From: Verrucomicrobiota bacterium
GTDB taxonomy: Bacteria > Verrucomicrobiota > Verrucomicrobiia > Chthoniobacterales > JAFAMB01
Direction of reading: 5' to 3'
NCBI GenBank assembly: GCA_019237325.1
Contig: JAFAHI010000083.1
Location: 1-42,404, forward strand
Length of the DNA stretch: 42,404 nt
Shown: one piece after another, positions 4,881-41,921 of the stretch
How positions within the stretch are numbered: the stretch's first letter is position 1
How the letters are laid out: the number at the start of each line of letters is the position of its first letter
Position numbers and translations under genes: made by a program
The notes under the pieces: generated by a model
What the model was told of the DNA's origin: nothing
Database searches by the model: none
The model's input: only the letters and a program-made list of their open reading frames with translations

Positions 4881-5035
4881 GCGAATGGGCGTGTGGGCGA
4901 CGGGGCGATTTTCAGTCGCGTCTGCAGTGAACATAGTGGACGTAATGGACTGAGTAGACGTAGTGGATGCTCTTCCGCGCCATCGCCCTGTCGCCCATTC
5001 GCCGTTTCGCCCATTCGCCGTTTCGCCCTTTCGCC
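4872..5035. repeat. Inverted octamer arms (GGCGAATG / CATTCGCC) enclosing 9-mer GTGGACGTA repeats
   Basis: Read directly; left arm overlaps the ALDH stop codon. Confidence 0.7.
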
Positions 5036-5115
5036 TCCGGCGCACAAACCGTCACTCGACGCGTGATCGGGGTTGCGCTGTCGTTTGGCTGCGCAACAAT
5101 GAATATAAGATCACT

Positions 5116-10281: not shown

Positions 10282-10426
10282 CGCGGTAAGTAAGCGATAA
10301 CAAAAGTAACCGGGAGTTCAAGGAGTTGTTAGAAGGTGGCATAGCGGGTGATTGGGTTGCTTCCGCGCGACGCGAATGAGTTAGAACAGCCGCGAAAAGG
10401 CGCAGAAAACGCAAAAGAAGCGACAA

Positions 10427-10533
10427 TTGGATGGGAGCCGCTTTGAAGCGTTGCAGACGACCTCGCAACTTTCTCGTTGGCGCGGGTGCAACCGAAGAAT
10501 GTGAAAACAGGCGGCTCCAGCGAATTACCCAGC
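10427..10533. repeat. Half copy of the GGAGCCGC four-repeat element
   Basis: TTGGATGGGAGCCGCTTT at 10427 and CAGGCGGCTCCAGCGAATTACCCAGCG at 10508; 81 bp offset as in the full copies. Confidence 0.75.
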
Positions 10534-10571
10534 GTTTTGTTCTCGCCCAAATAGTGTCTGCTGAACCGGGC

Positions 10572-11045
10572 TCAATGAATATCGGGCACGTTGCAGAGCG
10601 GATGTAATTCTCCTTCCACCACCGAATCGCTGATCGCCTGCTCGAACCAACAAATCGCACCAGCACTGATCCCGCAGAGGATCTTACCCGCCTGCCACGC
10701 TTCTTTCAGTGGCTGGTCTAAACCGCGTCCGCGCCAGACTGACAACATGTCCCGGGTATTCCCTCCGCCAACGTAAAAAATGTCGTTTCCCAGTACCGCA
10801 GCTCGCGGATCGGAGATCTGCGAATCAATCAGCGCCAAGTGCGTTGGCCGGCAGGCTAATTTCTCGAATGCAGAGTAAAACCGCTCGATATAATCGACGC
10901 TATCTCCGGTAGCGGTCGGTATGAAACAGACTCGCGGTTCCCGATCCGACCGGCGCCACAAAGAAAGGATGTACCGGTCCAAGGCCAGGTTGTCTGGCTC
11001 CATCGAAAACCCGCCCCCACCCAAAGCGACGATGTGACCAGCCAT
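10572..11045 (-). pseudogene. peptidase E (family S51), C-terminally truncated
   Basis: IVALGGGGFSMEP, CFIPTATGD, YVGGGNT, GISAGAICWF; stops at 157 aa before the usual catalytic-His (PHY) region. Confidence 0.8.
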
Positions 11046-11057
11046 ACGGAAACAAGG

Positions 11058-11282
11058 ATTTCACCACAGAGACACAGAGAACACAAAGACCGAATCTAAA
11101 AATCCCCAGATTACACAGATCAAGCCTCAGATTAATTGCTTGCCGGCGAATAAAAGTACCGCCGCTCGACTTCCTTTTATTACCAAACCTGGGCTGAGAC
11201 CAGAAATGGAAATCTGCGTAATCTGTGTAATCTGCGGATTTTAAATGCTGTCTCTGTGTCCTCTGTGTCTCTGTGGTGAAAT
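11058..11282. repeat. Nested inverted-repeat element
   Basis: Outer ATTTCACCACAGAGACACAGAG / CTCTGTGTCTCTGTGGTGAAAT; inner CAGATTACACAGAT / ATCTGCGTAATCTGTGTAATCTG. Confidence 0.85.
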
Positions 11283-11290
11283 TTTCCGAT

Positions 11291-13735
11291 TCATTCGCGG
11301 AGCGCTGTGATCGGGTCGACCCGGATCGCACGGAGGGCGGGCACCAGGCAGGCCAGGAATGCAGCCAGCCCTAAGACACCGACCGCGGTCAAAAGGGCAA
11401 CCGGATCAGTCCCGGAAACACCATAGAGCAGGCTCTGGATCAGATGGGTTAGGATCATTGAGCTAATGATACCGGCAACCAGGCCGATCCCAACAATGGT
11501 TAGTCCCTGACGAACGACCAAACTGAGGATGCTTCCGGATTCTGCCCCGAGTGCAATTCTAATCCCAATTTCCCGCGTGCGCTGCGCGATCGAATACGCG
11601 AGTACGCCGTAGAGTCCCACCGCAGCGAGTAGCAGAGCGAGAACCGAGAACAGGCCCACCAAAATGACGGAAAGCCTTTGCGTTACCAGCTCATTACTGA
11701 GCTGAGTTTCCAAGGTTCGAATATTGAAGACCGGTAGATTTGAGTCCACCGATTGCACCGCCTCGCGAGCCGCAGCTACCAGCTGCAGCGGATCGCCTTT
11801 CGCCCGAAGCAAGATAGTCATGCCTAGCTCCGGTTCCTGCGAGATCGGATAGTAGAGCTCAGCGAGTTTGGGCACGTTTACCAAGTCGTTGTGCCGCACC
11901 GTCCGGACCATTCCAATGATGGTATATTTTGGCGAGTCCGGCTTATCAGGGTCCTCAATAATCTGTTGGCCGATCGGATCCTGGCCAGGAAAACAGCGAT
12001 TGGCCAGCTTTTCATCAATGATAACGACGGGCGTTTTACCGATTCTATCCTCTGAGTCGAAATCGCGGCCACGAACGATTTGAATCCGAAGTGTTTTGAA
12101 ATAATCCGGCGAGATAGACTCATATTCGGCGGTCGGTTCTTCACCGGGTCTGGGTACAGGCTGACCAACGATCCCAAAATCCCTGACGTAATTCTCACCA
12201 TTAAAGGGCGTATTACTACCCAGAGCAAACGCCTCGATGCCCGGAATCCGGTGAATCCGTTCCAAAAGCGATCCGTAAAATGCCACCATTTCTTCAGTCT
12301 TCGGTGACTGATTGGATTCGTTTTGATATTTGGACTTCGACAGTTTAATCCCGATGGTGAGCAAGTTATGCGGGTCAAATCCGAGCGGCACTTTCTGCAA
12401 ACTCTGGAAGCTTTGAATTAGTAGGGTAGCACCGACTAAAAGAAGACTAGCCAAAGCCACCTGGCCGATAACTAACAAACCTTGGCTCCGTTGCCGGGCG
12501 GCGCCGGCGGTACTGCCGTGACCGCCTGCGGTCTCTAGCATCGCGCGGATGTTAATCCGAGAGGTCTTCAACGCAGGCCATAATCCAAATACGAGGCCAC
12601 TGCAGAAAGTCACCAGCGTCGTAAATAACAGGACCATCCCGTTGATGTGAACCTGCCGAAACCGGGCAACATCATGAGGGGCTAACGCACGAATCGCGTC
12701 GAGACTGGTCTGCGCTAAAAGTAAACCGAGCATCCCGCCAAACACCGCTAATACTACGCTCTCGAATAGTAGCTGGTTGACCAGCCGGCTTCGGCTAGCG
12801 CCAAGGGCCGCCCTCAACGCAACTTCGCGTTGACGCGCTATGGCTCGACCTAATAACAGGTTGGCAACATTCGCACAGCCGATCAAAAGAACGAGACCGA
12901 CGACGGCCAGCAATAAGTAAAGCGTCATCCGATATTGGCCGACGGCGTCCTCCAACAGCGGCATTGCCTGAGTAGAGATGCCCGTGTTAGTGTCCGGATA
13001 ACGTAACTCGAGATTTCGAGCAATCACCCGAAGCTCGGCGGACGCGCTCTCGAGAGAAACACCCGGCTTAAGCCGAGCCAAACAGAACAGCCCGGGATGC
13101 ATACCACGATCCGTTAGTGCGGATTTGATCTCGAAATGGCTGAACGGCAGGTAAACATCCATGCCCTCCGGGGTCGTGATTTGCGGGGGGATGATGCCGA
13201 TGATTTGGTAGCTAACATCATTCAGCACCAGGTTTTGGCCGATAACCCTCGGATCCGCCGCGAAACGGTTTCGCCAGAATCGATCGCTCAAGAGAACGAC
13301 ACCTGATCCTCCCGGATGATCGTCATTCTCGGAAAACGCGCGCCCCATGGCAGGCTGAGCTCCTAGCACTCGAAAATAGCTCGCGGTCACGAATGCACCG
13401 TGCACCCAGGCTGGGTCACCATTCCCGGTTAAATTAAAATTATCCCGACGAAAAACGGCGAGGTCTTCGAACGAATGTTGGTTCGCACGCCAATCGAGGT
13501 AATCGGGGTAGGACACCGACATTTTCGGATAAGCGGAGCTCGTGTCCAAAATCGTGCATAACTTCTCCGGTTCCGGATAAGGCAACGATTCCAATAGAAC
13601 CGCATCGACCAAACTGAAAATGGCGGTGTTGGCTCCGATAGCGAGTCCCATGATCAGTACAGTGGTAATGCTGAACCCGGGGGACTTTAATAGCAACCGG
13701 ACGGTGTAACGCAGGTGAGAGATTAGGCTTCGCAT
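11291..13735 (-). CDS. ABC transporter permease (ADOP-type)
   Basis: Start set at MRSLISHLR by paralog comparison; REVALRAALGA, EIGIRIALGA, VDPITALRE. Confidence 0.93.
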   Translation of the reverse strand: MRSLISHLRYTVRLLLKSPGFSITTVLIMGLAIGANTAIFSLVDAVLLESLPYPEPEKLCTILDTSSAYPKMSVSYPDYLDWRANQHSFEDLAVFRRDNFNLTGNGDPAWVHGAFVTASYFRVLGAQPAMGRAFSENDDHPGGSGVVLLSDRFWRNRFAADPRVIGQNLVLNDVSYQIIGIIPPQITTPEGMDVYLPFSHFEIKSALTDRGMHPGLFCLARLKPGVSLESASAELRVIARNLELRYPDTNTGISTQAMPLLEDAVGQYRMTLYLLLAVVGLVLLIGCANVANLLLGRAIARQREVALRAALGASRSRLVNQLLFESVVLAVFGGMLGLLLAQTSLDAIRALAPHDVARFRQVHINGMVLLFTTLVTFCSGLVFGLWPALKTSRINIRAMLETAGGHGSTAGAARQRSQGLLVIGQVALASLLLVGATLLIQSFQSLQKVPLGFDPHNLLTIGIKLSKSKYQNESNQSPKTEEMVAFYGSLLERIHRIPGIEAFALGSNTPFNGENYVRDFGIVGQPVPRPGEEPTAEYESISPDYFKTLRIQIVRGRDFDSEDRIGKTPVVIIDEKLANRCFPGQDPIGQQIIEDPDKPDSPKYTIIGMVRTVRHNDLVNVPKLAELYYPISQEPELGMTILLRAKGDPLQLVAAAREAVQSVDSNLPVFNIRTLETQLSNELVTQRLSVILVGLFSVLALLLAAVGLYGVLAYSIAQRTREIGIRIALGAESGSILSLVVRQGLTIVGIGLVAGIISSMILTHLIQSLLYGVSGTDPVALLTAVGVLGLAAFLACLVPALRAIRVDPITALRE

Positions 13736-13762
13736 GTCAGTGAGTCGGCAAGCAATGAAATT

Positions 13763-13886
13763 GAATAGCCGCAAAGGATCGCAAAGATCGCGAAAGCGAC
13801 AGACAGATTCTGGATACACTCGTGGCTAGGTTTTTCGCTTCGCAGGTCATATTTTTTGCGTTCTTTGTGCTCTTTCGCGGCTATTC
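13763..13886. repeat. Inverted-repeat element (GAATAGCCGCAAA family)
   Basis: GAATAGCCGCAAAGGATCGCAAAGATCGCGAAAG ... TTTGCGTTCTTTGTGCTCTTTCGCGGCTATTC. Confidence 0.85.
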
Positions 13887-13894
13887 CTCCGTTT

Positions 13895-16345
13895 TCATTC
13901 GCGAAGCGCTGTTATCGGGTCGATGCGGCTGGCTCGGAACGCGGGGAAGAAACAGGCGGTCAATGCCGTGAGGGCAAGGGCGAGAACGCTGATTGCAATG
14001 GACAGCGGATCCGTTGCGGAGACTCCGTACAGGATTCCAGCGATTATCCCGGAGAGCGCTAGGGAAATTACTAGTCCAATGAAGATGCCGACTCCTACGA
14101 TCTTAAGCCCCTGTTGGATGACCAATCGAAGAATGCTCGGAGATTGTGCGCCCAGAGCAATTCTGACTCCTATCTCACGTTTCTTCTGACCAACCGAATA
14201 AGAGAGAACCCCGTACAATCCAATTGCCGCTAATAACAGAGCGACCGCAGAAAATGCGCTAACTACTACCGAAGCTAACTGCCGGATGGCAAACGCGCCT
14301 GCAACCGCGTCTTCCAGCTGGCCGATATTTGATACCGCCAGGTTCGGATCGAGATCCGCGACAACTTTTCGCAGAGGCGCGGTCAGCAGGGCTGGATTAT
14401 TCTCGGCGTGGATTACCAGCGTCGCGAAATTAACCCGATTCGATTCAGTATTCTGAGTATACGGATAGTAACATTGGAAGGGCGTTGGCTGCGATTCCGG
14501 GTTGTCGTATTGGACGCTGCCCGCTACGCCCACGATCGTGTAGAAATTCCGTTTCAAACCGGTGCGATCATGAAAATCATAGATCCGTTTCCCGATCGGA
14601 TCTTGATCAGGAAAAAGCGATTGAGCCACACTCTGACTAATGATCACAACTTTCTGACTATCGGGGCCATCTTGCTCATTAAAGGTTCTGCCCCGTATCA
14701 GGGGAATGCTCATGGTACGGAAATAATCCGGCGAGATGAACTGCACTTGCCAGGCGGGTAACTGGTTCTGCGGTGGTTCCCGGCGCCCTACAATCCAAAA
14801 GCCGTCTAGATTAGTTCCCGGGGAAGAAGGCATAAACGGCAAGGCGCTATTGATGCTGACGGATGAAATACCGGGGAACGTTTTTACTCGCTTGAGCAAA
14901 TGATCAAAGAACTGGCGGTACTCGGACTCGTTCGAATAATTAGCGTTGGTAAGATAAAGATCCGCAGTCAGACGGTTAGCCGCATCGAATCCGAGAGGCG
15001 TACGTTGCAGCGCCTGAAAGCTTCGAGCCATGAGACCCGCGCCAATTAAGAGGACAACTGTCAGCGCCACCTGGCCCCCCACGAGGATGGCTTGGCCGAG
15101 GTTCCGTGCCCGGCCGGCAGTACCGCCACGTTCTCCTCCCTGTTTAAGAGCTAATCCCAGATTGGTCCTCGAGTTGACCAGAGCCGGGAACAACCCAGAG
15201 AAAGCCGCAGTTAAAAGGGTGATCACGACCACAAAGACCAAGGCCCCAGTGTCAAGCCGTACCTCTTGAAACCGGGCGAACTCATCCGGCACCAGAGCTC
15301 TAATCATCGCTAAGGGCCAGGCAGCCGCAGCGAGACCAATGGTTGCACCCGCAAATGCCAGCGCCGAATTTTCGATAAGGAGTTGAGCAACCAATCGTCC
15401 TCGATTTGCGCCGAGAGCCGCGCGCACACTCATTTCTCTGGCGCGTTCTTGTGCTCGGACCAGCAACAGCGTAGCGACATTCGCGCAAGTGATCAGCAGT
15501 AAACAGGCTACCGCTGCTTCCACCAGCCAGAGCGAGCCGGAATAGCTGCCAATCACCGTATCGAGATAGGAGACTGCCCGGATATCGAACCCGAAATCTT
15601 CCGAGTACCGGCGCACCAAATTTTGCTGGAGCACTTCCAGATCGGCTTTAGCCGTTTGCAGTGTAGCGCCGGCTTTGAGGCGGCCGAAACACGCATAGTC
15701 ATGGCTAAGCCGCTGGGTCATCTCCACCGTCCCGTACCAGCGGCTTTGGTTCAACGGGACATAGACCTCCACCTTCGCGGATTCGTTAGCGACAGCCGGA
15801 GTGACGCCGATGATCTGAAAACTTTTGCCGTCCAGTGATAAGTTAGTTCCGACCACATTGGGGTCGCCATGGAACTGTGTCCGCCAAAAACGTTCACTGA
15901 CGACCGCCACCGGAGACCCATCCGGGCGGTCATCGGACACTTCAATCGGACGGCCAAGCGCCATCGCTCGTCCGAATAGCTGAAAGAAGGTTCCCGAGAT
16001 ATAGGCCCCGCTGATTAACTGAGGATTGCCGTGTCCAGTCAGCGTAAAATCGTCATTGAGACAGAGCGCCATCTCCTGGAACGAATGTTGGCCAGCCTTG
16101 ATATCGACGTAATCTGGGTAATCGAGAGGTAATCGATCGAAACTTCGATAAGACTGGTAAACCTGTACCAACTGCTCGGGATGCGGGTACGGAAGCGGCT
16201 TTAGGAGCACCGCCTCCATGACACTATAGATAGCGGTGTTGCCCCCAATCCCTAATCCAAGGATCAGGATCGCTGTGATCGTGAATCCGGGCGTCTTAAC
16301 CAACCGCCGGATCGTATGGCGAAGATGGGAAATTAGGCTGGGCAT
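13895..16345 (-). CDS. ABC transporter permease (ADOP-type)
   Basis: Start MPSLISHLR; same duplicated permease motifs; ends RIDPITALRE. Confidence 0.93.
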   Translation of the reverse strand: MPSLISHLRHTIRRLVKTPGFTITAILILGLGIGGNTAIYSVMEAVLLKPLPYPHPEQLVQVYQSYRSFDRLPLDYPDYVDIKAGQHSFQEMALCLNDDFTLTGHGNPQLISGAYISGTFFQLFGRAMALGRPIEVSDDRPDGSPVAVVSERFWRTQFHGDPNVVGTNLSLDGKSFQIIGVTPAVANESAKVEVYVPLNQSRWYGTVEMTQRLSHDYACFGRLKAGATLQTAKADLEVLQQNLVRRYSEDFGFDIRAVSYLDTVIGSYSGSLWLVEAAVACLLLITCANVATLLLVRAQERAREMSVRAALGANRGRLVAQLLIENSALAFAGATIGLAAAAWPLAMIRALVPDEFARFQEVRLDTGALVFVVVITLLTAAFSGLFPALVNSRTNLGLALKQGGERGGTAGRARNLGQAILVGGQVALTVVLLIGAGLMARSFQALQRTPLGFDAANRLTADLYLTNANYSNESEYRQFFDHLLKRVKTFPGISSVSINSALPFMPSSPGTNLDGFWIVGRREPPQNQLPAWQVQFISPDYFRTMSIPLIRGRTFNEQDGPDSQKVVIISQSVAQSLFPDQDPIGKRIYDFHDRTGLKRNFYTIVGVAGSVQYDNPESQPTPFQCYYPYTQNTESNRVNFATLVIHAENNPALLTAPLRKVVADLDPNLAVSNIGQLEDAVAGAFAIRQLASVVVSAFSAVALLLAAIGLYGVLSYSVGQKKREIGVRIALGAQSPSILRLVIQQGLKIVGVGIFIGLVISLALSGIIAGILYGVSATDPLSIAISVLALALTALTACFFPAFRASRIDPITALRE

Positions 16346-16373
16346 GGCAAAACAGGAGCTAGGAGCTGGGAAG

Positions 16374-16531
16374 AGTGAAAGGTGAAAAGTGAAAAGTGAA
16401 AGGTAAGCGGTAGCGCCTTGGCGGATGAGCGGCGTTGCAGAGCCGCTGATCAATCCCTTCTCGATTGGAGATGTCTAGGTTACGGGGAGTGTCCTTACTT
16501 TTCACCTTTCACCTTTCACTTTTCACACTTA
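16374..16531. repeat. Inverted heptamer arms (GTGAAAR / YTTTCAC)
   Basis: AGTGAAAGGTGAAAAGTGAAAAGTGAAAGG ... CTTTTCACCTTTCACCTTTCACTTTTCAC. Confidence 0.85.
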
Positions 16532-18973
16532 CTCGCGCAGCGCTGTGATCGGGTCGATGCGCGTCGCTCGAAACGCCGGCAGGAGACACGCCAGGAGCGC
16601 AGCCGCTGCGAGCACCAGGGTACCGGTTAGCAGCGCGGTGGGATCAGTTGCCGATATGCCATAAAGGACGCTTCCTATTATTTGTCCCAATATGATCTCG
16701 GCGCCGGCGCCAATGATTAGGCCCACGCAAATAATGCGGAGTCCCTGGTAAGTAACCAACTTAAGAATATTGGTTGCTTCGGCTCCTAAAGCCATTCTGA
16801 CGCCGATCTCGCGGACTCTGAGGCTCACCGAGTAAGAAAGCACCGCGTACAATCCGATGGAAGCCAGCAGTAAGGCTACACCGGAAAACAAACTGACGAT
16901 GATCAGAGAAAGCCGTTTTGCCGTAAAACTCTTAGCGATCTGATCGTCGTAGGGACCGACGTTGGCGAGAGGAAGGTCCGGATCAATCGTGTCGACCGTT
17001 TTTCGCAAAGCGGGGACCAAGGCTCGTGGGTCGCCACTCGCGTGCACAACCAAGGTTTCAAATTCCTTATATTCTCCGAACTGCGCTGCGGTTTGGGTGT
17101 ACGGGAAATAGGATTGGAACGGGGTATCTTGGATCTCCGGGTCCCGATGCTGAACGTCAGCCACTACGCCGATGATCGTAGTAAGATGGCGTGGTCGATT
17201 GAAAAGATCTCCCCGGTCATCGAGTTGTTTTCCGATTGGATCCACCCCACCAAAAATGCGACGAGCGATGCTCTCGTTAATAATCACAACGCTCTCTGCA
17301 TTTTCTTGATCCCGCTCATCAAAGAAACGCCCTTTTAACAGTGGTATACCAAGGGTTCGAAAATAGCCGGGCGAGACAACCTGATGAACCATCCAGGGTA
17401 ACCGGCTGACGTCCGTCACCTGCCGCCGAGCGACGATTAAGGTCTCGAGATCGAGGTTTTCGCCGAAAGGAACGCCATCGTTCAAACCGACATCAAGGAC
17501 ACCGGGCAGACGCCCCACTTTCTCCAGCAAAGAATCGAAGAAAACCTTTCTCTTTTCGCCGTCCGCGTACTTCGTACTGGCCAAGTACACATCCGCGACC
17601 AAAACATGGTGGCTATTGAATCCCAATGGAACGCTTTGTAGAGCCAAAAAACTACGCAACAGTAGTCCTGCTCCAATCAAAAGCACGGATGCCAGGGCGA
17701 CTTGCCCGATCACCAAAAGGTTTTGGCTGCGCTGACGTTCGTGGCCGGCAGTGCCAGTTCTTCCGCCCTCATCTCGGAGCGCAGATGCTAAGTTTGCCCG
17801 CGACAGAATGAGGGCAGGAAACAACCCGAAGAGCAGAGCCGTCAACAGCGTCACAACAAACACAAACAGCAAAGCGGATCCATCGATCGAGATCGCCTGC
17901 AGGCGAGTGATTTTGCCAGGATCAAGGACTTTGATTGAGGAAACACCCCAGCAAGCGGTTAGTAAGCCAACTCCGCCTCCCAACAGCGCCAGGATTAAGC
18001 TCTCGCTCAAGAGTTGAAGGACCAGGCGCTCGCGACTGGCACCAAGCGCAGCCCGAACAATTATCTCTTTGCTTCGTTCGCGTGCCCTCGCCAGTAACAG
18101 GTTTGCGGTGTTGGCACACGTAATTAACAGGAGGCAAAGAACCGCTCCTCCCAATAGCCAAAGGGTCGTCGAATAGTCGCTAACCACGCTGTTGAGCAAG
18201 GGCACCAGCTTAATCCCAAATAGACTACTAGTATCCGGATACTGACTGATTAAATTCTTGGTGAGGACCTCAAAATCCACTTGCGCTTGGTCCAAGGTAA
18301 CACCGTCTTTCAGCCGGCCGATACAATCAAACATATGGCCGCTTCGACGATTGCTAACATCTTTGTAGTTCGGGGCGACAGTAAATGGAACATAGAGGTC
18401 AATCCGCTGGATTTCATTGGCCTGCGGTGGGGTAATCCCGACGATCTCGAAAGTGCGCCCATTCAAGGTGATGTTTTTGCCAAGCACTTTCGGATCTCCA
18501 TGAAAGCGTTTCCGCCAGAGGCCATCGGTCAACACCACGACATTCGCTGCCGCTTTCTCCTCCGTCTCCCCGAACGGACGGCCAAGGAGAAATGGTCTGC
18601 CCATAACCGAAAAGAAGTTGCCGGTGACATAGACACCTTCCAGCCGTTCTGGCTCGGCATCGCCGGTGATCTGAAAATCGTCTGCGCCGATCAGGGTCAA
18701 GTCCTTGAGCGTATGCTGGCCGGCCCTGAAGTCCCGGTAATCGCTAAAGGCCATGTTCATCCGCGGAACGTCTTGTGTCGGTTGATAAATCCTGACCAAC
18801 CGATCGCTCTGCGGATAGGGTAATGGCTTCAACAGTACGCCATTGATAAGACTGAAGATCGCAGTGTTGGCGCCGACGCCTAACCCCAGAATCAAGATCG
18901 CCGTAATGGCAAACCCTGGGGACTTTAGCAGTAACCGGACGGTATGCCGGAGATGGGAAATCAACGCCCGCAT
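16529..18973 (-). CDS. ABC transporter permease (ADOP-type)
   Basis: Start MRALISHLR; GVGANTAIFS, GRLKDGVT, EIGVRMALGA. Confidence 0.93.
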   Translation of the reverse strand: MRALISHLRHTVRLLLKSPGFAITAILILGLGVGANTAIFSLINGVLLKPLPYPQSDRLVRIYQPTQDVPRMNMAFSDYRDFRAGQHTLKDLTLIGADDFQITGDAEPERLEGVYVTGNFFSVMGRPFLLGRPFGETEEKAAANVVVLTDGLWRKRFHGDPKVLGKNITLNGRTFEIVGITPPQANEIQRIDLYVPFTVAPNYKDVSNRRSGHMFDCIGRLKDGVTLDQAQVDFEVLTKNLISQYPDTSSLFGIKLVPLLNSVVSDYSTTLWLLGGAVLCLLLITCANTANLLLARARERSKEIIVRAALGASRERLVLQLLSESLILALLGGGVGLLTACWGVSSIKVLDPGKITRLQAISIDGSALLFVFVVTLLTALLFGLFPALILSRANLASALRDEGGRTGTAGHERQRSQNLLVIGQVALASVLLIGAGLLLRSFLALQSVPLGFNSHHVLVADVYLASTKYADGEKRKVFFDSLLEKVGRLPGVLDVGLNDGVPFGENLDLETLIVARRQVTDVSRLPWMVHQVVSPGYFRTLGIPLLKGRFFDERDQENAESVVIINESIARRIFGGVDPIGKQLDDRGDLFNRPRHLTTIIGVVADVQHRDPEIQDTPFQSYFPYTQTAAQFGEYKEFETLVVHASGDPRALVPALRKTVDTIDPDLPLANVGPYDDQIAKSFTAKRLSLIIVSLFSGVALLLASIGLYAVLSYSVSLRVREIGVRMALGAEATNILKLVTYQGLRIICVGLIIGAGAEIILGQIIGSVLYGISATDPTALLTGTLVLAAAALLACLLPAFRATRIDPITALRE

Positions 18974-18997
18974 GGAACGCTCCTCGAGAGTGAAGAG

Positions 18998-19127
18998 GAA
19001 TAGCCGCAAAAGAGCGCAAAGATCGCAAAAACGTCGGACGGTCTTCGATACAATCGCGAAATTCCAGTGTTTGCCATTTTGTTGAAACTCATTTTCTTTG
19101 CGCTCTCTGCGATCTTTCGCGGCTATT
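18998..19127. repeat. Inverted-repeat element (GAATAGCCGCAAA family)
   Basis: AATAGCCGCAAAAGAGCGCAAAGATCGCAAA ... TTTGCGCTCTCTGCGATCTTTCGCGGCTATT. Confidence 0.85.
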
Positions 19128-19146
19128 ATGTGTTCTTAATCCGGTG

Positions 19147-19483
19147 GCCAATAGCCGGTAGCCAATGGGTAGGAGTCAGTTCTGCGCACTTGGGCCGAGT
19201 TGTCGATGGCTTGGCTGCAGATGACCGACGTTGGGGCTCTCTGCGCTTTGCGGTTAAGGTTCATACTGGATTCTCCTATTCCTCTTTCCCTTGGCTACCG
19301 GCTGTTGGTCACTGGCCCCAACTTCACCGCAGAGACACAGAGGTATTTTTTTTCACAGCAAGGCCACGAAGATCGCAAGGATGATAAGAGATACTAATAA
19401 AAGTTACGATTCTAAGCACCCTTTACTCGGTCTCTCTGTATGTGTAGTGAATTCATCTTTGTGGCCTTTGCGGCCTTGCGGTG
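19147..19483. repeat. Cluster of further inverted-repeat elements
   Basis: GCCAATAGCCGGTAGCCAA/TTGGCTACCGGCTGTTGG; CACCGCAGAGACACAGAG; CACAGCAAGGCCACGAAG/CTTTGCGGCCTTGCGGTG. Confidence 0.7.
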
Positions 19484-19484
19484 T

Positions 19485-19664
19485 TCAATTCCGAGTCTCC
19501 GTTTGGTTTTCCAAAAACTTACTTATAACAATCAGTACACAAAGTTCGCGAAGCTGGGTCTTCTCTTCCGCGGTCAGACCATCCTCGTCTGGTGCGAGTT
19601 CTTCTCGTCCGTTGACCGATGAAGTCATGTCTTCTAACGAATGCCTCATCTTACTGTTTTCCAT
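19485..19664 (-). CDS. small hypothetical protein (~59 aa)
   Basis: MENSKMRHSLEDM...EKTQLRELCVLIVISKFLENQTETRN; co-oriented with the operon; AGGAGG nearby; non-repetitive. Confidence 0.4.
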   Translation of the reverse strand: MENSKMRHSLEDMTSSVNGREELAPDEDGLTAEEKTQLRELCVLIVISKFLENQTETRN

Positions 19665-19717
19665 CCTCCTTCGCCGACAGATTCTCCGGGAACTCTCTGC
19701 CCCTGTGGTTACATTTG

Positions 19718-20446
19718 TTATCCACCCACGGCCCGCGGGGCGGGTTCTCCTTCGTTCTCGTTGTTCTCTGCGACGATCTGGCCATCGAAGAGGTGAACGG
19801 TTCGGTCCGCATAACCGGCAAACCGTGAATCGTGGGTTACCATGCAAATGGTGGCGCCTCCTTGATGAAGTTCGGAGAGCAGGTCCATTACGGCGTCGCC
19901 ATTTTTACTGTCCAAGTTACCAGTCGGCTCGTCCGCTAATAGGATTGATGGCGAACCAACCAAGGCCCGGGCTACTGCCACTCGTTGCTGTTGTCCACCG
20001 CTTAGTTGATTCGGATAATGCCGCTGGCGGTGGCTCATGCCGACTCGATCTAAGGATTCCAAAACTCTTTGTTTCCGTTCACTGCGGGGCATTTCGCCGC
20101 GGTAGGTCAACGGTAGCTCGACATTCTCATATACGGTGAGATCGCCAATCAGGTTGAAACTTTGAAAAATGAACCCGATCTCCCGATTACGGATCCTTGC
20201 TCGCTCAGACAACTTAAGTTGTTCCACTTGTCTCCCATTCAGCCGGTAGGCGCCTTCCGACGGTGAGTCTAACAGGCCCAGGATCGATAGCAGCGTGGAC
20301 TTGCCGCAACCACTGGGTCCGGCGATCGCTACATATTCGCCTTGCAGAATCTTGAGATAAATCCCGGCTAACGCGTGGGTCTCAATCTCGTCGGTAAGGA
20401 ATACCTTCTTTATGCCGTCTAGATGGATTAGAGGTTCGGGATTCAC
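19718..20446 (-). CDS. ABC transporter ATP-binding protein (MacB/LolD-like)
   Basis: GPSGCGKST, GFIFQSFNL, LSGGQQQRVAVARAL, LADEPTGNLD, VTHD; alternative GTG start at 20467. Confidence 0.95.
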   Translation of the reverse strand: MNPEPLIHLDGIKKVFLTDEIETHALAGIYLKILQGEYVAIAGPSGCGKSTLLSILGLLDSPSEGAYRLNGRQVEQLKLSERARIRNREIGFIFQSFNLIGDLTVYENVELPLTYRGEMPRSERKQRVLESLDRVGMSHRQRHYPNQLSGGQQQRVAVARALVGSPSILLADEPTGNLDSKNGDAVMDLLSELHQGGATICMVTHDSRFAGYADRTVHLFDGQIVAENNENEGEPAPRAVGG

Positions 20447-20656
20447 AGTTCGCAGTTCGCTGTTCACGGTTGGGTTTGGCGGTTAGCGGTTAACGGTTGG
20501 CAGTTAGCGGTTTACAGTTCCAATCGTCCTCGTCCTAGTTTGGAGTCTCTTTTGCGAGCGTTGAACCATCTTCACTACACGCCCGCGATTTGAAAAGTTT
20601 CGGATCTCTTTGATTTTTTGGTTCATTTTGTTTTGGTTGAGCTGATCACCGATCCG

Positions 20657-23089
20657 CTAGCCCTCTCTTAGTGCGGTCGTCGGGCTTATTCGCATGGCGC
20701 GTTGAGCTGGGAAATAATTTGCGAAGAGGCTGATCACCAACAGCATACAGCTCACCCCAATTAAGGTTTCGGGATCAACCGGGGTAACACCGTAGAGAAG
20801 GCTTTGTAGCAGGCCACAAACACAAAACGAGGCGAAAAGGCCGATAATCATGCCAAGCGCGACCAGGCGCAGCGCTCGGAGCAGAATCAAACGAAAGATC
20901 TCGAGACGGCTGGCTCCTAATGCGGAACGCACCGCAATTTCTCGGCTACGTTGAGTCACACCATAGGATATAACGCTGTAAAGCCCGATCGCGGAGAGCG
21001 CCATCGTTGCGAGCGCAAATGCGCCAACCAACCAAAGGTCAAGCCGCCGGTTACCGATCGAATCGGCAATAAGCTGAGACCAGACGTTGACTCTGGAAAG
21101 CGCCACGGTTGAATCAGTTTGATTGACGATCTGATGCAAGATTGGAACCAAAGTTCCGGGATTCACTCCATCCTTGGCGCGGAGCACTAAGGCCATTTCG
21201 AGGGCATCGCTGGTTCCGCCCACTCCGTAGTGAGGAGATTGACTCAGGGGATAGTAGTATTCGTCCCGAACCGGTACTCCCAAACCGAAGTGATGAACAT
21301 CGCCCACGACGCCGATGATCGTTGCCGACCATCCATCTTCGTTCTCGATTTGGTTACCGAGCGCTGCCAGCGGCGTTTTCCAAAAGCGAGCGGCCAAGGA
21401 TCGGTTAATTAAGATCCGATGTGGACTATCGGGACCGTCTTGCTGATTAAAAAATCGACCCGCTAATAAAGGGATACCGGCTGCCTGGAAATAATCGCCG
21501 CTCACTACGCGGTATTGCGCGACCGGTTGTTGACCTTGGGCAAAAGGCGCTTGACCGACAACTTGGAATGAGATGTCACAGTCGCCAGGAGTCAGAGGCA
21601 AAAAAGTGATTGCGCCAGACGATTTTACTTCCGATGACTGGTTCAATTTTTCCTGGATAACACGATAGAAGGTCCTGACCGAGGCGTCATCTTGATACCG
21701 TACTGGTGGCAACGCAATCGTCGCGGTTAGCGTTCGCTCCGAATATTGAATACCAGGATCGCTTCCCCGCAGATTGAGAAAGGATCGGAGAAGGAGACCC
21801 GCGCAACTCAGTACCACCAAGGCACCACCAATCTGGCTGACGACCAATATATTGCGAAGCAGGCCCTGCCCCAGACTTCCGATTGAGCCGCGTAAACTTT
21901 CGCGGAGCCCCGTTTGCGGCTGTTTAGGAGCTGCCAAACTCGGTGCTAACCCACAAAGAACGCCGACCGAGATGGAAAGACCGACAGCAAACGCAAGTAC
22001 TCCTGGATCAATACTGATTTCCGATACACGCGGCAAAAGCGATTTTGCGATCAGTTTGAAAGAACCAACCCCCAGGCTCGCGAGACCGATTCCAACTACA
22101 CCGCCAAGGGCTCCGAGCACTAAACTTTCGACCAACGATTGTCGAACCAACCGCGAACGGCTCGCTCCCAAGGATGCACGAATAGCTAGCTCCCGCCAAC
22201 GGTTCAGGCTGCGAGAAAGTAATAGATTCGCCAGGTTGATTGAAGCAATCAGGAGTAGACAACCGACGGCTGCTTGTAGCAGCAATAGTCCCGGTCGCTC
22301 ACTCCCGACCATGTCCTCCTGTAACGAAGTCAAACGAATCCCGAATCCCGTTTGTTCCTTTGGATATTCACGAGCAAGATTGCCGGCAATCCGCGACATT
22401 TCTTGACTCGCCTGCGCCATAGTAACTTCTGGCTTCAATCGCCCATAAACGGACAGCCAGCGATTGCCTCGGTTCGCCAATTCGCTCTCCTTGAATGCCA
22501 ACGGAATCCATAGCTGAATGGTCTCATCGGGAAAATGGAAGCCATACGGCATCACTCCCACTACCTGATACGACTCGGCATTCAACCGAATGAACCGACC
22601 CGTCACATTCTCAGTCGACCCGTACAACTCGCGACAAATTCCTTCGCTGAGGATGACGACGTGTGAACTACCTATTTGATCCTCATTCGCTAAGAAACTA
22701 CGGCCGACGGTCGGACTTACTCCCAACAAACGGATGTAGTTTGGTGATACTGCGGCCCCCTTAACTCTTTCTGGTCCCGCGCTTCGCTCCAGGGTCAGGT
22801 CTTTGGGACGACAAGCTGCGAGTTCGCTAAAGGTATTGTTTCTCTTCTGCCAATCCAGGTAGTTGGGCGCCGACGCTAACGAATAGGGCCAAGCCGGCTC
22901 CCATTCTTCGTAAACCCGGACTAGGCGCTCCGCTTGAGGAGCCGGCAGTCCTCGCAGCAACACTGCATCCAACACGCTAAATACCATCACGTTTGCTCCA
23001 ATCCCGACTCCGAGTGCCAGAAGCGCAAAAAGCGTGAAACCCGGCGATCTCAACAGAAGCCGGACAGCGTAGCGCAGGTCTTGGAACAT
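20657..23089 (-). CDS. ABC transporter permease (ADOP-type)
   Basis: MFQDLRYAVRLLLRSPGFT, GRLKPEVT, ELAIRASLGA, EIAVRSALGA; 810 aa. Confidence 0.93.
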   Translation of the reverse strand: MFQDLRYAVRLLLRSPGFTLFALLALGVGIGANVMVFSVLDAVLLRGLPAPQAERLVRVYEEWEPAWPYSLASAPNYLDWQKRNNTFSELAACRPKDLTLERSAGPERVKGAAVSPNYIRLLGVSPTVGRSFLANEDQIGSSHVVILSEGICRELYGSTENVTGRFIRLNAESYQVVGVMPYGFHFPDETIQLWIPLAFKESELANRGNRWLSVYGRLKPEVTMAQASQEMSRIAGNLAREYPKEQTGFGIRLTSLQEDMVGSERPGLLLLQAAVGCLLLIASINLANLLLSRSLNRWRELAIRASLGASRSRLVRQSLVESLVLGALGGVVGIGLASLGVGSFKLIAKSLLPRVSEISIDPGVLAFAVGLSISVGVLCGLAPSLAAPKQPQTGLRESLRGSIGSLGQGLLRNILVVSQIGGALVVLSCAGLLLRSFLNLRGSDPGIQYSERTLTATIALPPVRYQDDASVRTFYRVIQEKLNQSSEVKSSGAITFLPLTPGDCDISFQVVGQAPFAQGQQPVAQYRVVSGDYFQAAGIPLLAGRFFNQQDGPDSPHRILINRSLAARFWKTPLAALGNQIENEDGWSATIIGVVGDVHHFGLGVPVRDEYYYPLSQSPHYGVGGTSDALEMALVLRAKDGVNPGTLVPILHQIVNQTDSTVALSRVNVWSQLIADSIGNRRLDLWLVGAFALATMALSAIGLYSVISYGVTQRSREIAVRSALGASRLEIFRLILLRALRLVALGMIIGLFASFCVCGLLQSLLYGVTPVDPETLIGVSCMLLVISLFANYFPAQRAMRISPTTALREG

Positions 23090-23112
23090 GGCGGGTGGAG
23101 GTTAGCGTTTGA

Positions 23113-23305
23113 GTAAGCAGTAAGCAGTAAGTAGTGAGCAGTTTTCTGTTGGGCCTGCAAAAAAGAGGATAGACTTTAGCGATGCCAGAAAGATTCGGAA
23201 CTGATTGATTTTTGCTGCAACCTTCATGTCAAGTCTTCATTACTGCTTACTGCTTACTGCTTACTGCTTACTGCTTACTGCTTACTGCTTACTGCTTACT
23301 GCTTA
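23113..23305. repeat. Inverted heptamer arms, including a perfect (TACTGCT)9
   Basis: 23241-23303 nine exact units; opposite arm GTAAGCA units at 23113-23141. Confidence 0.92.
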
Positions 23306-24562
23306 CCTCAGCTGTATTCGTTCATGACTATCAAATGCGCTCGTATCGGACAGAATCACGCGGTCGCCGGGCATCAGGCCGTTCAGGATCACAACCTTGG
23401 TAGCCGAGCCGCGGCCCAACTGGACCTTGGTTCTGGTGGCGGTGGCGCCGTCTGCGCCAATGCGGAACAAACCGATAGTAGAATCGTCCTGACCAAATGC
23501 GGGCCGGCCGACGTAGACGGCATCCGCTAGCTTTTCTAGTTCAATCGTGCCTTCTACACTTAGGTCAGGTCTGGCACCTTTGGGTAGTTCCATCCCATGG
23601 AAGGTAACGTCAACCAAGACAGCTCCTTCTCTCACCGCGGGATCGATTCGAGCCACCGTACCGCTCACAATACTGCCGTTACGCATATCAACTTGCCCGG
23701 TCTGCCCAATCGCAATGTCCCGGGCTTGCGTCTCCGGGATTTTGATCTGCGCTTTCAACTTCGCGTTGTCCGCTACCCGGGCTAGATTAGTACCAGCGGA
23801 AACGCGTTGCCCGACGTCAACGGCAATTTGCTGAAGGACGCCGTTCATCCCGGCTCGGACCTGCAACGCATCCACCTGACTGTGACGCAAATCCGCTTGG
23901 GCTTTGGCCTGTTCGAGATCGGTTTGGGCGACCGCCATTCTCGGCGCCATGGATCTCTTAGCAAATTCATAACGCTGTTGTTCTACCTCAAAGTTGGCTG
24001 CCAGCTCGACCGCGGCAATTTGCGCTTTCTTATAATCGAGGTCGGAAATCAGACCCCCTTTTGCCAGTCTTTGATCAGCCTCCAGCTCGGCTTTAGCCGT
24101 GTCGCGGTCAGCCTGAGCTTTGGTCAGAGCGGCTTGTCGCTCCAACAGTTCGCCTTCCAGTTCGGATTGGAGTTGGGTTAGTTTCGCTTGAGCGCTCTTG
24201 GTCGCGGCATCGGCGTCCCTTGCTTCCTGCTCCAACTCGGCACTGCTCAAAATCAATATAACGGAATTCGCGGTTACTTCTGTTCCCGGCCAAATCACGA
24301 TTTGCTCAACTCGAGCATCGGTTCGAGCGGGGATCCAGCGGACTTCTTGCGGAACCAGGGTTCCAATTCCGCGCACATCTCGAATCAACGGTCCCCGCGA
24401 CACGGTATCGATCCAGACGGAGCTGCGGTCGACCGCAGGCAGAGCCGGTTCAAGGCGGGCGACGAAAATACTAACTCCCGCCACCAGGGCTGCGGTCAGC
24501 AAGAGCAGCAACACATTTCTGCGCCATTTTTTTTGGCGGTAACCGATCCGGGGGATATCCAT
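23303..24562 (-). CDS. efflux periplasmic adaptor / membrane fusion protein (HlyD/MacA-like)
   Basis: N-terminal TM, VRGIGTLVP, coiled coil, VRAGMNGVLQ, VQLGRGS; start set at MDIPR. Confidence 0.92.
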   Translation of the reverse strand: MDIPRIGYRQKKWRRNVLLLLLTAALVAGVSIFVARLEPALPAVDRSSVWIDTVSRGPLIRDVRGIGTLVPQEVRWIPARTDARVEQIVIWPGTEVTANSVILILSSAELEQEARDADAATKSAQAKLTQLQSELEGELLERQAALTKAQADRDTAKAELEADQRLAKGGLISDLDYKKAQIAAVELAANFEVEQQRYEFAKRSMAPRMAVAQTDLEQAKAQADLRHSQVDALQVRAGMNGVLQQIAVDVGQRVSAGTNLARVADNAKLKAQIKIPETQARDIAIGQTGQVDMRNGSIVSGTVARIDPAVREGAVLVDVTFHGMELPKGARPDLSVEGTIELEKLADAVYVGRPAFGQDDSTIGLFRIGADGATATRTKVQLGRGSATKVVILNGLMPGDRVILSDTSAFDSHERIQLR

Positions 24563-26592: not shown

Positions 26593-26957
26593 AGGTGATT
26601 GGTAAGGTCGCCGAGCGAGATCGGGGTTGAACGCCTGGAGGGGAGCCGCTCTAAACCGTTGCTAAACCCACCGCGAGTTTCTCCTTATCGCAAAAAACGG
26701 CCAAACCGTTAGGCCACAGGCGGCCCCCGCGAATTACCCAGCGCGTGCCATCACCCGCTGGTAGTCCAAAAACCGTACGAGGAACCAATCGCGCATGGCA
26801 CGCGACGAAACGTTCCCGGGAGCCGCCTGCTACGGAACGTTCAGATACATGCCAAAATTTTTCGCGCGATTATACGTTTTGATTTGAGACCGGTTTAGAG
26901 CGGCTCCCCTCCAGGCGTTCAACCTCCGATCTCGCGCGGCGACCTTACCAATCACCT
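26593..26957. mobile_element. GGAGCCGC four-repeat MITE/REPIN-like element, copy A
   Basis: ~66 bp terminal IR (26593-26658 / 26891-26957) plus inner IR CAGGCGGCCCCCG...CGGGAGCCGCCTG. Confidence 0.8.
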
Positions 26958-28386: not shown

Positions 28387-28444
28387 GGGTTGCGGTTTGC
28401 GTTTGGCGTACGGCGTTTGGCGTTTGGCGTTTGGCGGCTAACAA

Positions 28445-28787
28445 TCGTCCTCGTACTCGTCGTCGTCCTCGTCCTCGAAGGCGTTGCGGTTGGACCCAGC
28501 TCTGCTGTCCGCTCTTTAGTGATTCGGGAAATAACGCTCATGTAGAAAGGGTTAATATAAAACGGGTGACGGTAGAAAGGCGCATCCGGGAAGAATTAGC
28601 AACAACTTCTCGTTGATGGCTTTTCGGTAAGGATGAGCTCCCGCTCATCCGCGGCATCGCAGATAGCCGCTTCGCGGCAAAGCCGGACGCCTCCCTTCGG
28701 GACAAAGACCTTTCCTGAGGCCTGTCCACGAAATCGACGCCACATCACTGTCGCCCTTCTCGAGGACGAGGACGAGTACGAGAACGA
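28445..28787. repeat. (CTCGTN)n-arm inverted element with ~280 bp interior
   Basis: TCGTCCTCGTACTCGTCGTCGTCCTCGTCCTCGA ... TCGAGGACGAGGACGAGTACGAGAACGA. Confidence 0.8.
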
Positions 28788-28858
28788 AGCGCCAAAGCCG
28801 AACGTCAACCGTCAACTATATCGCACATGGTACAACAGGTGCTACCATTTCTAGCCCT

Positions 28859-31414: not shown

Positions 31415-31688
31415 CTGGAGGGGAGCCGCTTTGGCACGTACCGGACGATTACGCGAAATTCGTCCTATCGCTCGACCTGGCCACAAAACGTCGCAGCTAG
31501 CGGCTCCCGGAAACTACCCAGCGCGATGCAGCTCTATGAGTCGGTGTAAACGAATCGAAGGCTATGGGTAATACATCACGTTGGGACGTTCGCGGGAGCC
31601 GCCTGTTTTCATAAGTTTTCGGCGGGATCAGCGTTGAGGCGAATTTTGCGAGGGCGACGGAGCACGCGCCAAAGCGGCTCCCCTCCAG
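31415..31688. mobile_element. GGAGCCGC four-repeat element, copy B
   Basis: CTGGAGGGGAGCCGCTTTGGC ... GCCAAAGCGGCTCCCCTCCAG; inner GCGGCTCCCG ... CGGGAGCCGC. Confidence 0.8.
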
Positions 31689-33623: not shown

Positions 33624-34001
33624 TGGAGCGTGCTTCGCTTGTGAGGCCGCTGGAGTTTGGATATTTTGTTCTGCAAGGGGTAGCTCCGGAGGAGCGAAAT
33701 CTTTATAGCTATCGAGCCTATAAATTAGCGACCTAGCTCCGTAGGAGCGCCATATATGGGATTCCGCGCGGCTTTGGGTGATTGGTTTCCGCGCCGACAT
33801 GCTCCATCATAAATTAGGCCTTGCTCGATTTGTGGAGATTCCAACGCTCTGTGCCGCTGCACGATCACAACTCGATGTCGCTCCTACGGAGCTAACCGCA
33901 ATTTAGGGCATGGATAACTATAAATATTTTGCTCCTACGGAGCAGGATTTTCGCCATGCAAATGTCCAAACTCCAGTGCATCGCAAGCGAGGCGCGCTCC
34001 A
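33624..34001. repeat. GCTCCGTAGGAGC four-unit element inside CTGGAGTTTGGA terminal IRs
   Basis: Units at 33683, 33736, 33880, 33931; outer IR 33624-33666 / 33960-34001. Confidence 0.85.
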
Positions 34002-35328: not shown

Positions 35329-35413
35329 CTAAATTTGCAGGACGAGACCCCGGAAAAACTAACCTGCCGAAGAGGCAGCGACCCGCATCGATCCACCACG
35401 AAGCGGTAGCAGA

Positions 35414-35601
35414 GATAATAGCTCCGTAGGAGCGAAATCTTTATAGCGATCCGGGTCTAAATTGCAGCAAGCTCCGTAGGAGCGACATATCCTGCCTGTG
35501 TGCAAACCTCGCCAGCCTCAATCTGATGTCGCTCCTACAGAGCTCGTCGGGATTTTGGGATGTCGCGGCTATAGAGATTTCGCTCCTACGGAGCTATTAT
35601 C
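35414..35601. repeat. GCTCCGTAGGAGC four-unit element
   Basis: Units at 35421, 35471, 35531, 35582; terminal IR GATAATAGCTCCGTAGGAGCGAAATCTTTATAGC. Confidence 0.88.
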
Positions 35602-35629
35602 GCAGTAACCGCTCGTGGCAGTCTCGCTC

Positions 35630-38680: not shown

Positions 38681-38997
38681 TCAGCCCCGAAGCGGCGCGA
38701 CTGGAGGGGAGCCGCTTTCGAGTGTTGAAAAACCTTATCGCTAGAGCAGAGATAACACGTCCGGAGGCGCAGCAAAACTGGCTGGCAGGCGGCTCCCGGA
38801 AACGTCTGCCGATGTCGCTAGCAGGATGGGCTGAATTGAAGCGGCGACACCACAATAACAATTCACACCGTGGGTCGTGTCCGGGAGCCGCCTGCAAACA
38901 ACGACTCGCCAATACAACGCTTCGTTGCGCGAACAGATCTGGTTGCGGGCAACGATCAAAAGCGGCTCCCCTCCAGCTCGCGCCGCTTCGCGGCTGA
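38681..38997. mobile_element. GGAGCCGC four-repeat element, copy C
   Basis: Core 38701-38976; inner IR 38786-38800 / 38880-38894; flanking IR CGAAGCGGCGCGA / TCGCGCCGCTTCG. Confidence 0.8.
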
Positions 38998-40171: not shown

Positions 40172-40541
40172 AAAGGAGGCTTTCTTTAATGAAACGATGC
40201 GTAACTCCCAGACGCATCATATAGGGTGATATTGAGGGTACCATTAAGTCTGGAGTGAGACAATCGAAAGGCGCGTTGGCGGATGTCGATAAGGCCAAAC
40301 TAGGAGCGAAGCTGCGACTCATAATAGCCTAGGTTTAAATCCTAGGGAGAATAAGAGAATCAGCGATGAAAGTTAGTCATACCTAGTTAGTTATACCTAA
40401 AGACGTACCGGTCCGTGCACACACACACACGTTGAGCCACGGCTCGGCGCGCGTTTAGGCCTAACAACAATAATGTGACGTCGTGGCGCCTGAGTCCTTC
40501 GATCGTCCACTCAGGTCTTTCGGGAGCCTCACCCTACCAAA

Positions 40542-41705: not shown

Positions 41706-41757
41706 CGCCTAATGTATTCCAGGGCAGTGGGTAGCACAAGCGGGCGGCTGTCACCGG

Positions 41758-41921
41758 TGAGAAGTGAGACGTGAGAGGTGAGAAGTGACAGGGTAACACG
41801 GGATAGGGACGCAGTGGACTTACTGGACTTAGTGGACTGAGTAGACGTAGTGGACATTGCCTCGATCGGAGACGGCCGTCCACTCAGTCTATTAGGTCGA
41901 CTCTATCCGCTACGTCCACTC
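41758..41921. repeat. GTGAGAN heptamers plus inverted GTGGACTTA 9-mer arms
   Basis: Read directly. Confidence 0.7.

Follow-up and report, generated by a model that had tools for sequence, protein, structure and literature searches.

The window analyzed here, a 42,404-nt stretch that makes up contig C118 of the G000 assembly (6.05 Mb, 78% complete), carries three copies (A, B, and C) of an inverted repeat doublet and one single unit. All three copies are intergenic and lie among ordinary genes, copy B between adenine deaminase-like and ureidoglycine aminohydrolase genes and copy C between convergent adenosine deaminase-like and HPPD genes. The initial annotation had described each copy as four repeats, R1 to R4, with cores at 26635–26914, 31415–31688, and 38701–38976, and our measurements reproduced both these spans and their geometry: R1 and R2 start 82, 82, and 85 nt apart, R2 start and R3 end lie 113, 109, and 109 nt apart, and R3 and R4 end 85, 83, and 82 nt apart. 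R2 is present as claimed, but imperfectly, with one mismatch in copy A and two in copy B. The four-repeat parse itself had to be replaced: R1 with R2 and R3 with R4 form two long-loop REP hairpins, as shown by sister genera that carry a 24-nt unexpanded form. Each REP unit consists of a GGAG tag, a 9-bp stem, a long loop, the complementary arm, and a short conserved 3′ tail, and R3/R4 is an inverted copy of the R1/R2 unit.

In copy A, the left REP (26637–26728, plus strand) has its tag at 26637–26640, its 5′ stem arm at 26641–26649, a 70-nt loop at 26650–26719, and a 3′ arm with one mismatch at 26720–26728. An 89-nt central spacer (26729–26817), each side of which begins with the conserved REP 3′ tail, separates it from the inverted right REP (26818–26912, minus strand), which has a 73-nt loop (26827–26899) and its tag at 26909–26912. 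Outer arms enclose the doublet: the left one (26593–26636, plus strand) combines a subfamily flank, which also precedes 10 units in the genome, with heptamer repeats and pairs with the right one (26913–26957, minus strand). Copy B (31417–31686) has loops of 70 and 71 nt, copy C (38703–38974) has loops of 73 and 70 nt, and the spacer is 85 nt in both. The single unit (10429–10519, plus strand, 69-nt loop) is decayed, with its tag and last stem base mutated, and has no partner.

Other repeats share the window. A second long-loop REP family contributes a unit with a GTAG tag and a loop of ∼72 nt at 40444–40537 (minus strand), and the doublets at 33682–33945 and 35402–35613 belong to another REP family, which has its RAYT/IS200-like gene at G000:C188. 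Inverted pairs of 6- to 9-nt tandem repeats occur at 1024–1211, 4861–5052, 16358–16536, 23112–23313, 28433–28804, and 41748–41854; in many intergenic regions such pairs form an outer shell inside which REP doublets are nested and exchanged. The window also contains, at 7843–23089, five tandem permease genes (∼810–850 aa) with ABC ATPases and an RND-type adaptor, and the one permease scanned is an ADOP-family duplicated permease.

Across the 6.05-Mb genome, R1 has 266 exact matches, and 138 of 301 motif clusters have the exact four-arm layout; reversed-pattern controls gave no matches, which places the family well outside chance expectation. A tolerant search returned 417 REP units (the main family), with loops of 31–36 nt in 57, 64–75 nt in 353, and other lengths in 7; none of the 417 has a loop of 37–58 nt. 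These units form 161 inverted doublets (139 long-long, 9 short-short, 9 mixed, and 4 other), with spacers mostly of 84–99 nt. Among 355 loops of 60–80 nt, 304 measure 69–72 nt (SD 1.6 nt), while the central spacer length has an SD of 5.9 nt. This constancy persists despite a median pairwise identity of 48% between long loops (42% when shuffled), in agreement with the conserved lengths and free sequence noted initially. Most units carry the GGAG tag, which differs from the canonical GT(A/G)G; two related families in the same genome carry GTAG/GTGG. A T precedes the tag in 97% of units, usually as CT. Most copies are extragenic: a mechanical ORF of at least 150 aa encloses only 10 of the 156 doublets scored, and several such ORFs start within or just before the element.

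To place the long-loop unit among its relatives, we compared it across genomes. A search of 301 genomes found the 24-nt REP, which has the same tag and stem and a 2-nt loop, in 7 that belong to other genera, with 20 copies in G012, and the 2-nt-loop form of the main REP was never found in G000; the search for the unexpanded form returned one further match, with a 21-nt loop, in G001. All 6 genomes of the genus carry the 34-nt form, and none of the 37 other genomes in the family does. Long-form copies number 26–233 exact matches in each of five congeners, and outside the genus 3 of 37 family genomes hold 2, 6, and 1. Read from these sequences, the element descends from a canonical short-loop REP. 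Hybrids also occur: in G000, 7 doublets join the long form of the main REP to that of the sister REP, whose stem differs by compensated changes, and in genus g8 the unexpanded forms of the two REPs are likewise joined in hybrid doublets (L129, L130, and L131).

The long loops fall into subfamilies in which left and right clusters pair faithfully (for example, cluster 29 with cluster 35 in 25 of 25 cases), and because the left and right loops of a subfamily travel together, the doublet is the inherited unit. The 16-bp terminal inverted repeats and the fixed-length variable inserts of ∼35 nt would also suit a MITE mobilized by a DDE-type IS, or a spacer-like system of sequence capture, but we consider this highly improbable. 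The length distribution of target-site duplications equals the control genome-wide, the only enclosed gene is a RAYT, and the loops form inherited subfamilies with a median nearest-neighbor identity of 81%. Capture of loops from the host genome was not supported, as few loops have a match elsewhere in it (8 of 363, against 3 of 363 for the reversed control).

The statement that no mobilizer is encoded is true within the window, but the cognate RAYT lies on another contig, G000:C435, between arrays of this repeat. A profile search with PF01797 gave six matches in G000, among which the intact gene at G000:C435:6740–7198(−) encodes 152 aa and scores 87.1 bits against NF047646 (cut-off 80). Its product carries HUH and Y-x-x-x-NP motifs, its best PDB match is 4ER8 (TnpA-REP; E 2.4e-9), and its closest named records are labeled Verrucomicrobiota/Chthoniobacterales. 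On both sides of the gene, the 34-nt form makes up inverted tandem arrays with a 92–93-nt period; this is the sole gene found when we looked for copies enclosing an ORF. An internally deleted RAYT remnant lies between two short-loop units at G000:C742:1321–1654. Orthologues are flanked by the short form in G002, G003, and G005 and by the 70-nt form in G001, so that both loop classes adjoin this RAYT clade. The locus, with common flanks, is shared by these four genomes and G000, and dN/dS of 0.10–0.20 in the three estimable pairs with G000 indicates purifying selection. The cassette (L004, L013, L015, L016, and L018) is reversed in G003 and G005 compared with G002, indicating that it flipped in place between the inverted REP arrays. 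Together, these observations make it likely that the C435 RAYT copies the REP doublets. Several points count against this: the tag is GGAG instead of GT(A/G)G, the gene adjoins the minority 34-nt form while 353 of 417 units are long, and in G003 the RAYT at the shared locus is broken, with an intact second copy elsewhere. With this query, no orthologue was found in G004 (assembly 81% complete).

Orthologous positions vary between species. Site A is occupied by the same copy in G002, by a doublet from another REP family in G005, and by an unrelated repeat in G003. A deletion in G004 has reduced site B to a stub, and the copy there in G002 is divergent. The flanks of site C persist in G002 and G004, but the left loop is different. 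By eye, site C in G005 (L067, G005:C1, beside the HPPD gene) holds an apparent IS200/RAYT-like gene with different palindromes. For a wider view, we took 60 occupied sites, 40 from G002 and 20 from G003, as the first listed matches and thus a non-random set. Twenty lack paired flanks in G000, and at the 40 comparable sites G000 is occupied at 21 and was scored unoccupied at 19 (one of which, L089, is mis-scored), with many of the unoccupied sites holding other repeat families. Presence and absence between species are seen, but no clean pre-insertion allele with a precise junction was found among the 19 unoccupied sites, which counts against the mobile reading; contigs aligned to copy A came mostly from other copies and gave no usable joint. 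At the 21 occupied sites, all loops are at least 65% identical in 8, all are at most 60% identical in 8, and 5 are mixed. The neutral yardstick is ∼72% identity, from a pS of 0.28 in a neighboring kinase gene between G000 and G002 only; measured against it, in-place replacement by another copy is likely common, although faster mutation could also produce this pattern. The proposal of a non-autonomous, REPIN-like mobile element agrees with 161 inherited inverted doublets, a RAYT on another contig, and presence/absence between species.

The fixed geometry had also suggested a rod-shaped structured RNA. Copy A has a very stable predicted rod (z = −13.4), and copies lie mostly downstream of genes (among 90 scored, 53 are co-directional, 29 convergent, and 8 divergent), so many are probably transcribed. 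Copy-specific pairing was not supported: a 9-nt inverted pair exists in the center of copy A, but genome-wide there is no such pairing inside the element, since the match between the arms of one copy does not exceed that between arms taken from different members of its subfamily (differences of −0.006, −0.012, and −0.019; 102 elements, 1474 control pairs). Outside the element, inverted extensions of at least 15 nt accompany 22% of 138 doublets against 2% of controls, an excess that arises largely because doublets are nested in pairs of other repeat families. Folding of the loops does not exceed that of dinucleotide shuffles (z of +0.10 to +0.30, at most 60 sampled per family), and a scan of the window with Rfam gave no match at gathering score. 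Compensatory changes in the stem number 18 where 1.3 are expected, which is weak evidence because only two inherited variants supply them. The symmetric layout, the tandem arrays around a transposase, and the turnover of sites between species likewise speak against RNA as the primary identity, which is largely refuted; a rod-shaped non-coding RNA we hold to be very improbable. The rod does bear on the REP interpretation. The stem of a single unit is predicted to close with a probability of 0.94, but the whole doublet at equilibrium is predicted to adopt the R1–R4/R2–R3 rod (0.95) rather than two local hairpins (0.00), so that the form readable by the RAYT must be kinetic, which counts against our preferred explanation. 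PMC3116915 proposed the same split, with a stable rod hidden from the RAYT and a less stable "clover" recognized by it.

Long loops are not confined to the main family. Three further RAYT-linked families in G000 have them, a sister family (67–72 nt in 38 of 67 left arms), a distant family (65–75 nt in 115 of 180), and a third family (33–36 nt in 92 of 104, with one unexpanded copy), and the RAYTs of these long-loop families fall in separate clades. Within the genus, the distant family has 24–374 long and 0–2 short copies per genome, while in other genera short copies predominate (116 and 66, for example) and a few long ones occur in G020, G242, and G014; the search patterns for the two forms are not quite identical at their 5′ ends. 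In genus g8, the sister REP next to its RAYT is unexpanded. Of 188 units in a fifth G000 family, 177 have a 2-nt loop, and 5 carry a hairpin mini-element of 30–39 nt at the tip, which brings their loops to 32, 34, 34, 34, and 41 nt. Similar insertions account for a 33-nt loop of a sister REP in G023 and for 59–63-nt loops of the main family in two copies in G012. Insertion of a mini-element at the 2-nt tip is a likely origin of the long loops and demonstrates a path to the 34-nt size. Against it, no relic of the mini-element was detected on the forward strand of the main loops, and the short loops gave only an ambiguous, partial reverse-strand signal. The 30- to 32-nt hairpin mini-element has 85 pattern matches in G000 (e.g., C418:11057, C600:1397, and C171) and is inserted in other repeats, the 2-nt tip of a REP family among them. 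We rejected an origin of the 70-nt loop by doubling of the 34-nt loop, for which local-alignment scores were at shuffle level, and a loop ancestry shared between families, for which scores were likewise at shuffle level apart from a weak signal between the short loop and the sister family.

Why loops measure 34 or ∼70 nt is a separate question. One tentative answer, less than evenly probable in our judgment, is that each family received one or two early insertions of a 30- to 35-nt mini-element, with rare indels since and no selection on length. This agrees with the direct cases in G000 of 2-nt loops becoming 32–34-nt loops, with the insertions in G023 and G012, and with the observation that within subfamilies spacer length is often only slightly more variable than loop length. 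Across subfamilies of 48% median identity, however, the loop SD is 1.6 nt and that of the spacer 5.9 nt; three families would have to reach 67–75 nt independently; and the loops show no homology to the mini-element, between the 34- and 70-nt classes, or between families beyond the weak signal. Newly lengthened loops also stay rare, the 93-nt class comprising 2 of 417 units. The two, at G000:C249 and C381, arose when a 23-nt hairpin inserted into a 70-nt loop close to its 3′ end, and insertions of a similar type are found in G003. Helical phasing of the loops was rejected, since the arm distances (11, 43.5, and 79.5 bp) are 3.1 and 6.5 turns apart and share no common phase.

The second answer, which we regard as unlikely though worth stating, is that the SSB tetramer serves as a ruler: a loop holding one 35- or 65-nt wrap would let the stem close on the SSB-coated lagging strand, and, with the same low probability, only loops fitting one wrap would stay copyable. 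Such a ruler would suit two discrete classes separated by the gap at 37–58 nt, the same sizes in four REP families served by different RAYT clades, and unstructured loops. [quoted passage not shown] The agreement is a numerical coincidence only, however, and the SSB-35 mode gives lower end-to-end FRET; moreover, canonical 2-nt loops suffice in sister genera and in most units of the fifth family (177 of 188), and a 32-nt insertion also accounts for 34 nt. It is doubtful that a host-imposed ruler drove several unrelated REP families of the genus from a 2-nt tip to an unstructured 35- or 70-nt spool; if it did, these elements would use SSB to present the stem to the transposase instead of being melted by it. 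What probability these two answers leave falls to a geometric limit of the RAYT complex or to other causes.

We compared the doublet with known systems as described in the parts of the cited sources available to us. Like the SBW25 REPINs/RAYTs (PMC3337134, PMC3116915, 10.1101/2021.07.10.451892), it is an inverted REP pair around a length-conserved spacer of free sequence, present in hundreds of extragenic copies, nested in other repeats, and arrayed in tandem beside a RAYT that is kept at a conserved locus under purifying selection. It differs in REP size (56 or ∼92 nt with a 34- or 70-nt loop, against a palindrome of ∼14 bp), in doublet length (∼275 bp against ∼100), in the GGAG tag, and in a spacer without a copy-specific hairpin. 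GTAG-tagged REPs and REPtrons (PMC3733652), which occur in Verrucomicrobia (O. terrae), share the 5′ tetranucleotide at the foot of a 5- to 13-bp stem, the short 3′ tail, head-to-head dimers, and heterodimers, but the loops described there are 2–20 nt, with inner regions of at most 27 bp that are self-complementary, whereas loops here are 34 or 70 nt and unstructured. TIRYT/TIRtrons of TnpA-Y1 subclass 2.1 (PMC3733652; 10.1101/279083) also have a Y1 gene between long inverted repeats that bear a G-rich motif; we rejected this assignment, as the GGGGWSAS motif described for them is unmatched here, the 152-aa protein ends after the core without a C-terminal HTH, and the repeat here folds as a genuine stem-loop and descends from a short-loop form.

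The closest enzymatic model is E. coli TnpA-REP/BIME (4ER8; PMC3479197, PMC3333891, PMC8266576), with a homologous enzyme (E 2.4e-9) and a T, usually CT, before the tag; unlike E. coli REPs, the stem here has no bulge. In these papers, the 5 bp nearest the tip and the loop are free of protein contact in 4ER8 (PMC3479197), and loop sequence is not selected in E. coli REPs; these REPs measure 29–37 nt and lose activity without the upper stem-loop, and in group-3 REPs a loop base matters. Published loop limits for REPs are 2–20 nt (PMC3733652) or 2–5 nt (bioRxiv 10.1101/279083), and only the 24-nt form of the sister genera has canonical size (loop 2–20 nt, REP 20–40 nt). Because the element departs from the GT(A/G)G tag and the 2- to 20-nt loop, we file it as a variant of REPIN/RAYT rather than a strict member. 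In the literature searched (the main text of mostly open papers), we found no description of long-loop REPs or of Chthoniobacterales REPs.

Taken together, the element is, with high confidence, an inverted pair of REP hairpins that is inherited whole, and the RAYT lying amid arrays of this repeat likely copies it. By analogy with E. coli TnpA-REP, the stem would form on single-stranded DNA, and the RAYT would bind the tag and the foot of the stem, ignore the tip, cut at CT-type sites, and join strands, which could yield rare excision, insertion, and in-place replacement. The loop may first have grown when a small hairpin element inserted at the 2-nt tip and then drifted. A large loop would be tolerated because the tip is not contacted, which does not in itself explain a size of 34 or 70 nt. 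The kind of element is itself known; what is added here is the series of 2-, 34-, and 70-nt loops on one stem, the parallel shift of loops in several families of one genus, and a visible route of insertion. REP finders that expect 2- to 5-nt loops, or seeds less than 130 bp apart, would mis-parse or miss such elements. For the study of how RAYTs recognize and spread REPs in cells, this genus offers a natural series of loop lengths on one stem; with both long classes beside orthologous RAYTs, the contribution of loop length and the role of SSB become testable.
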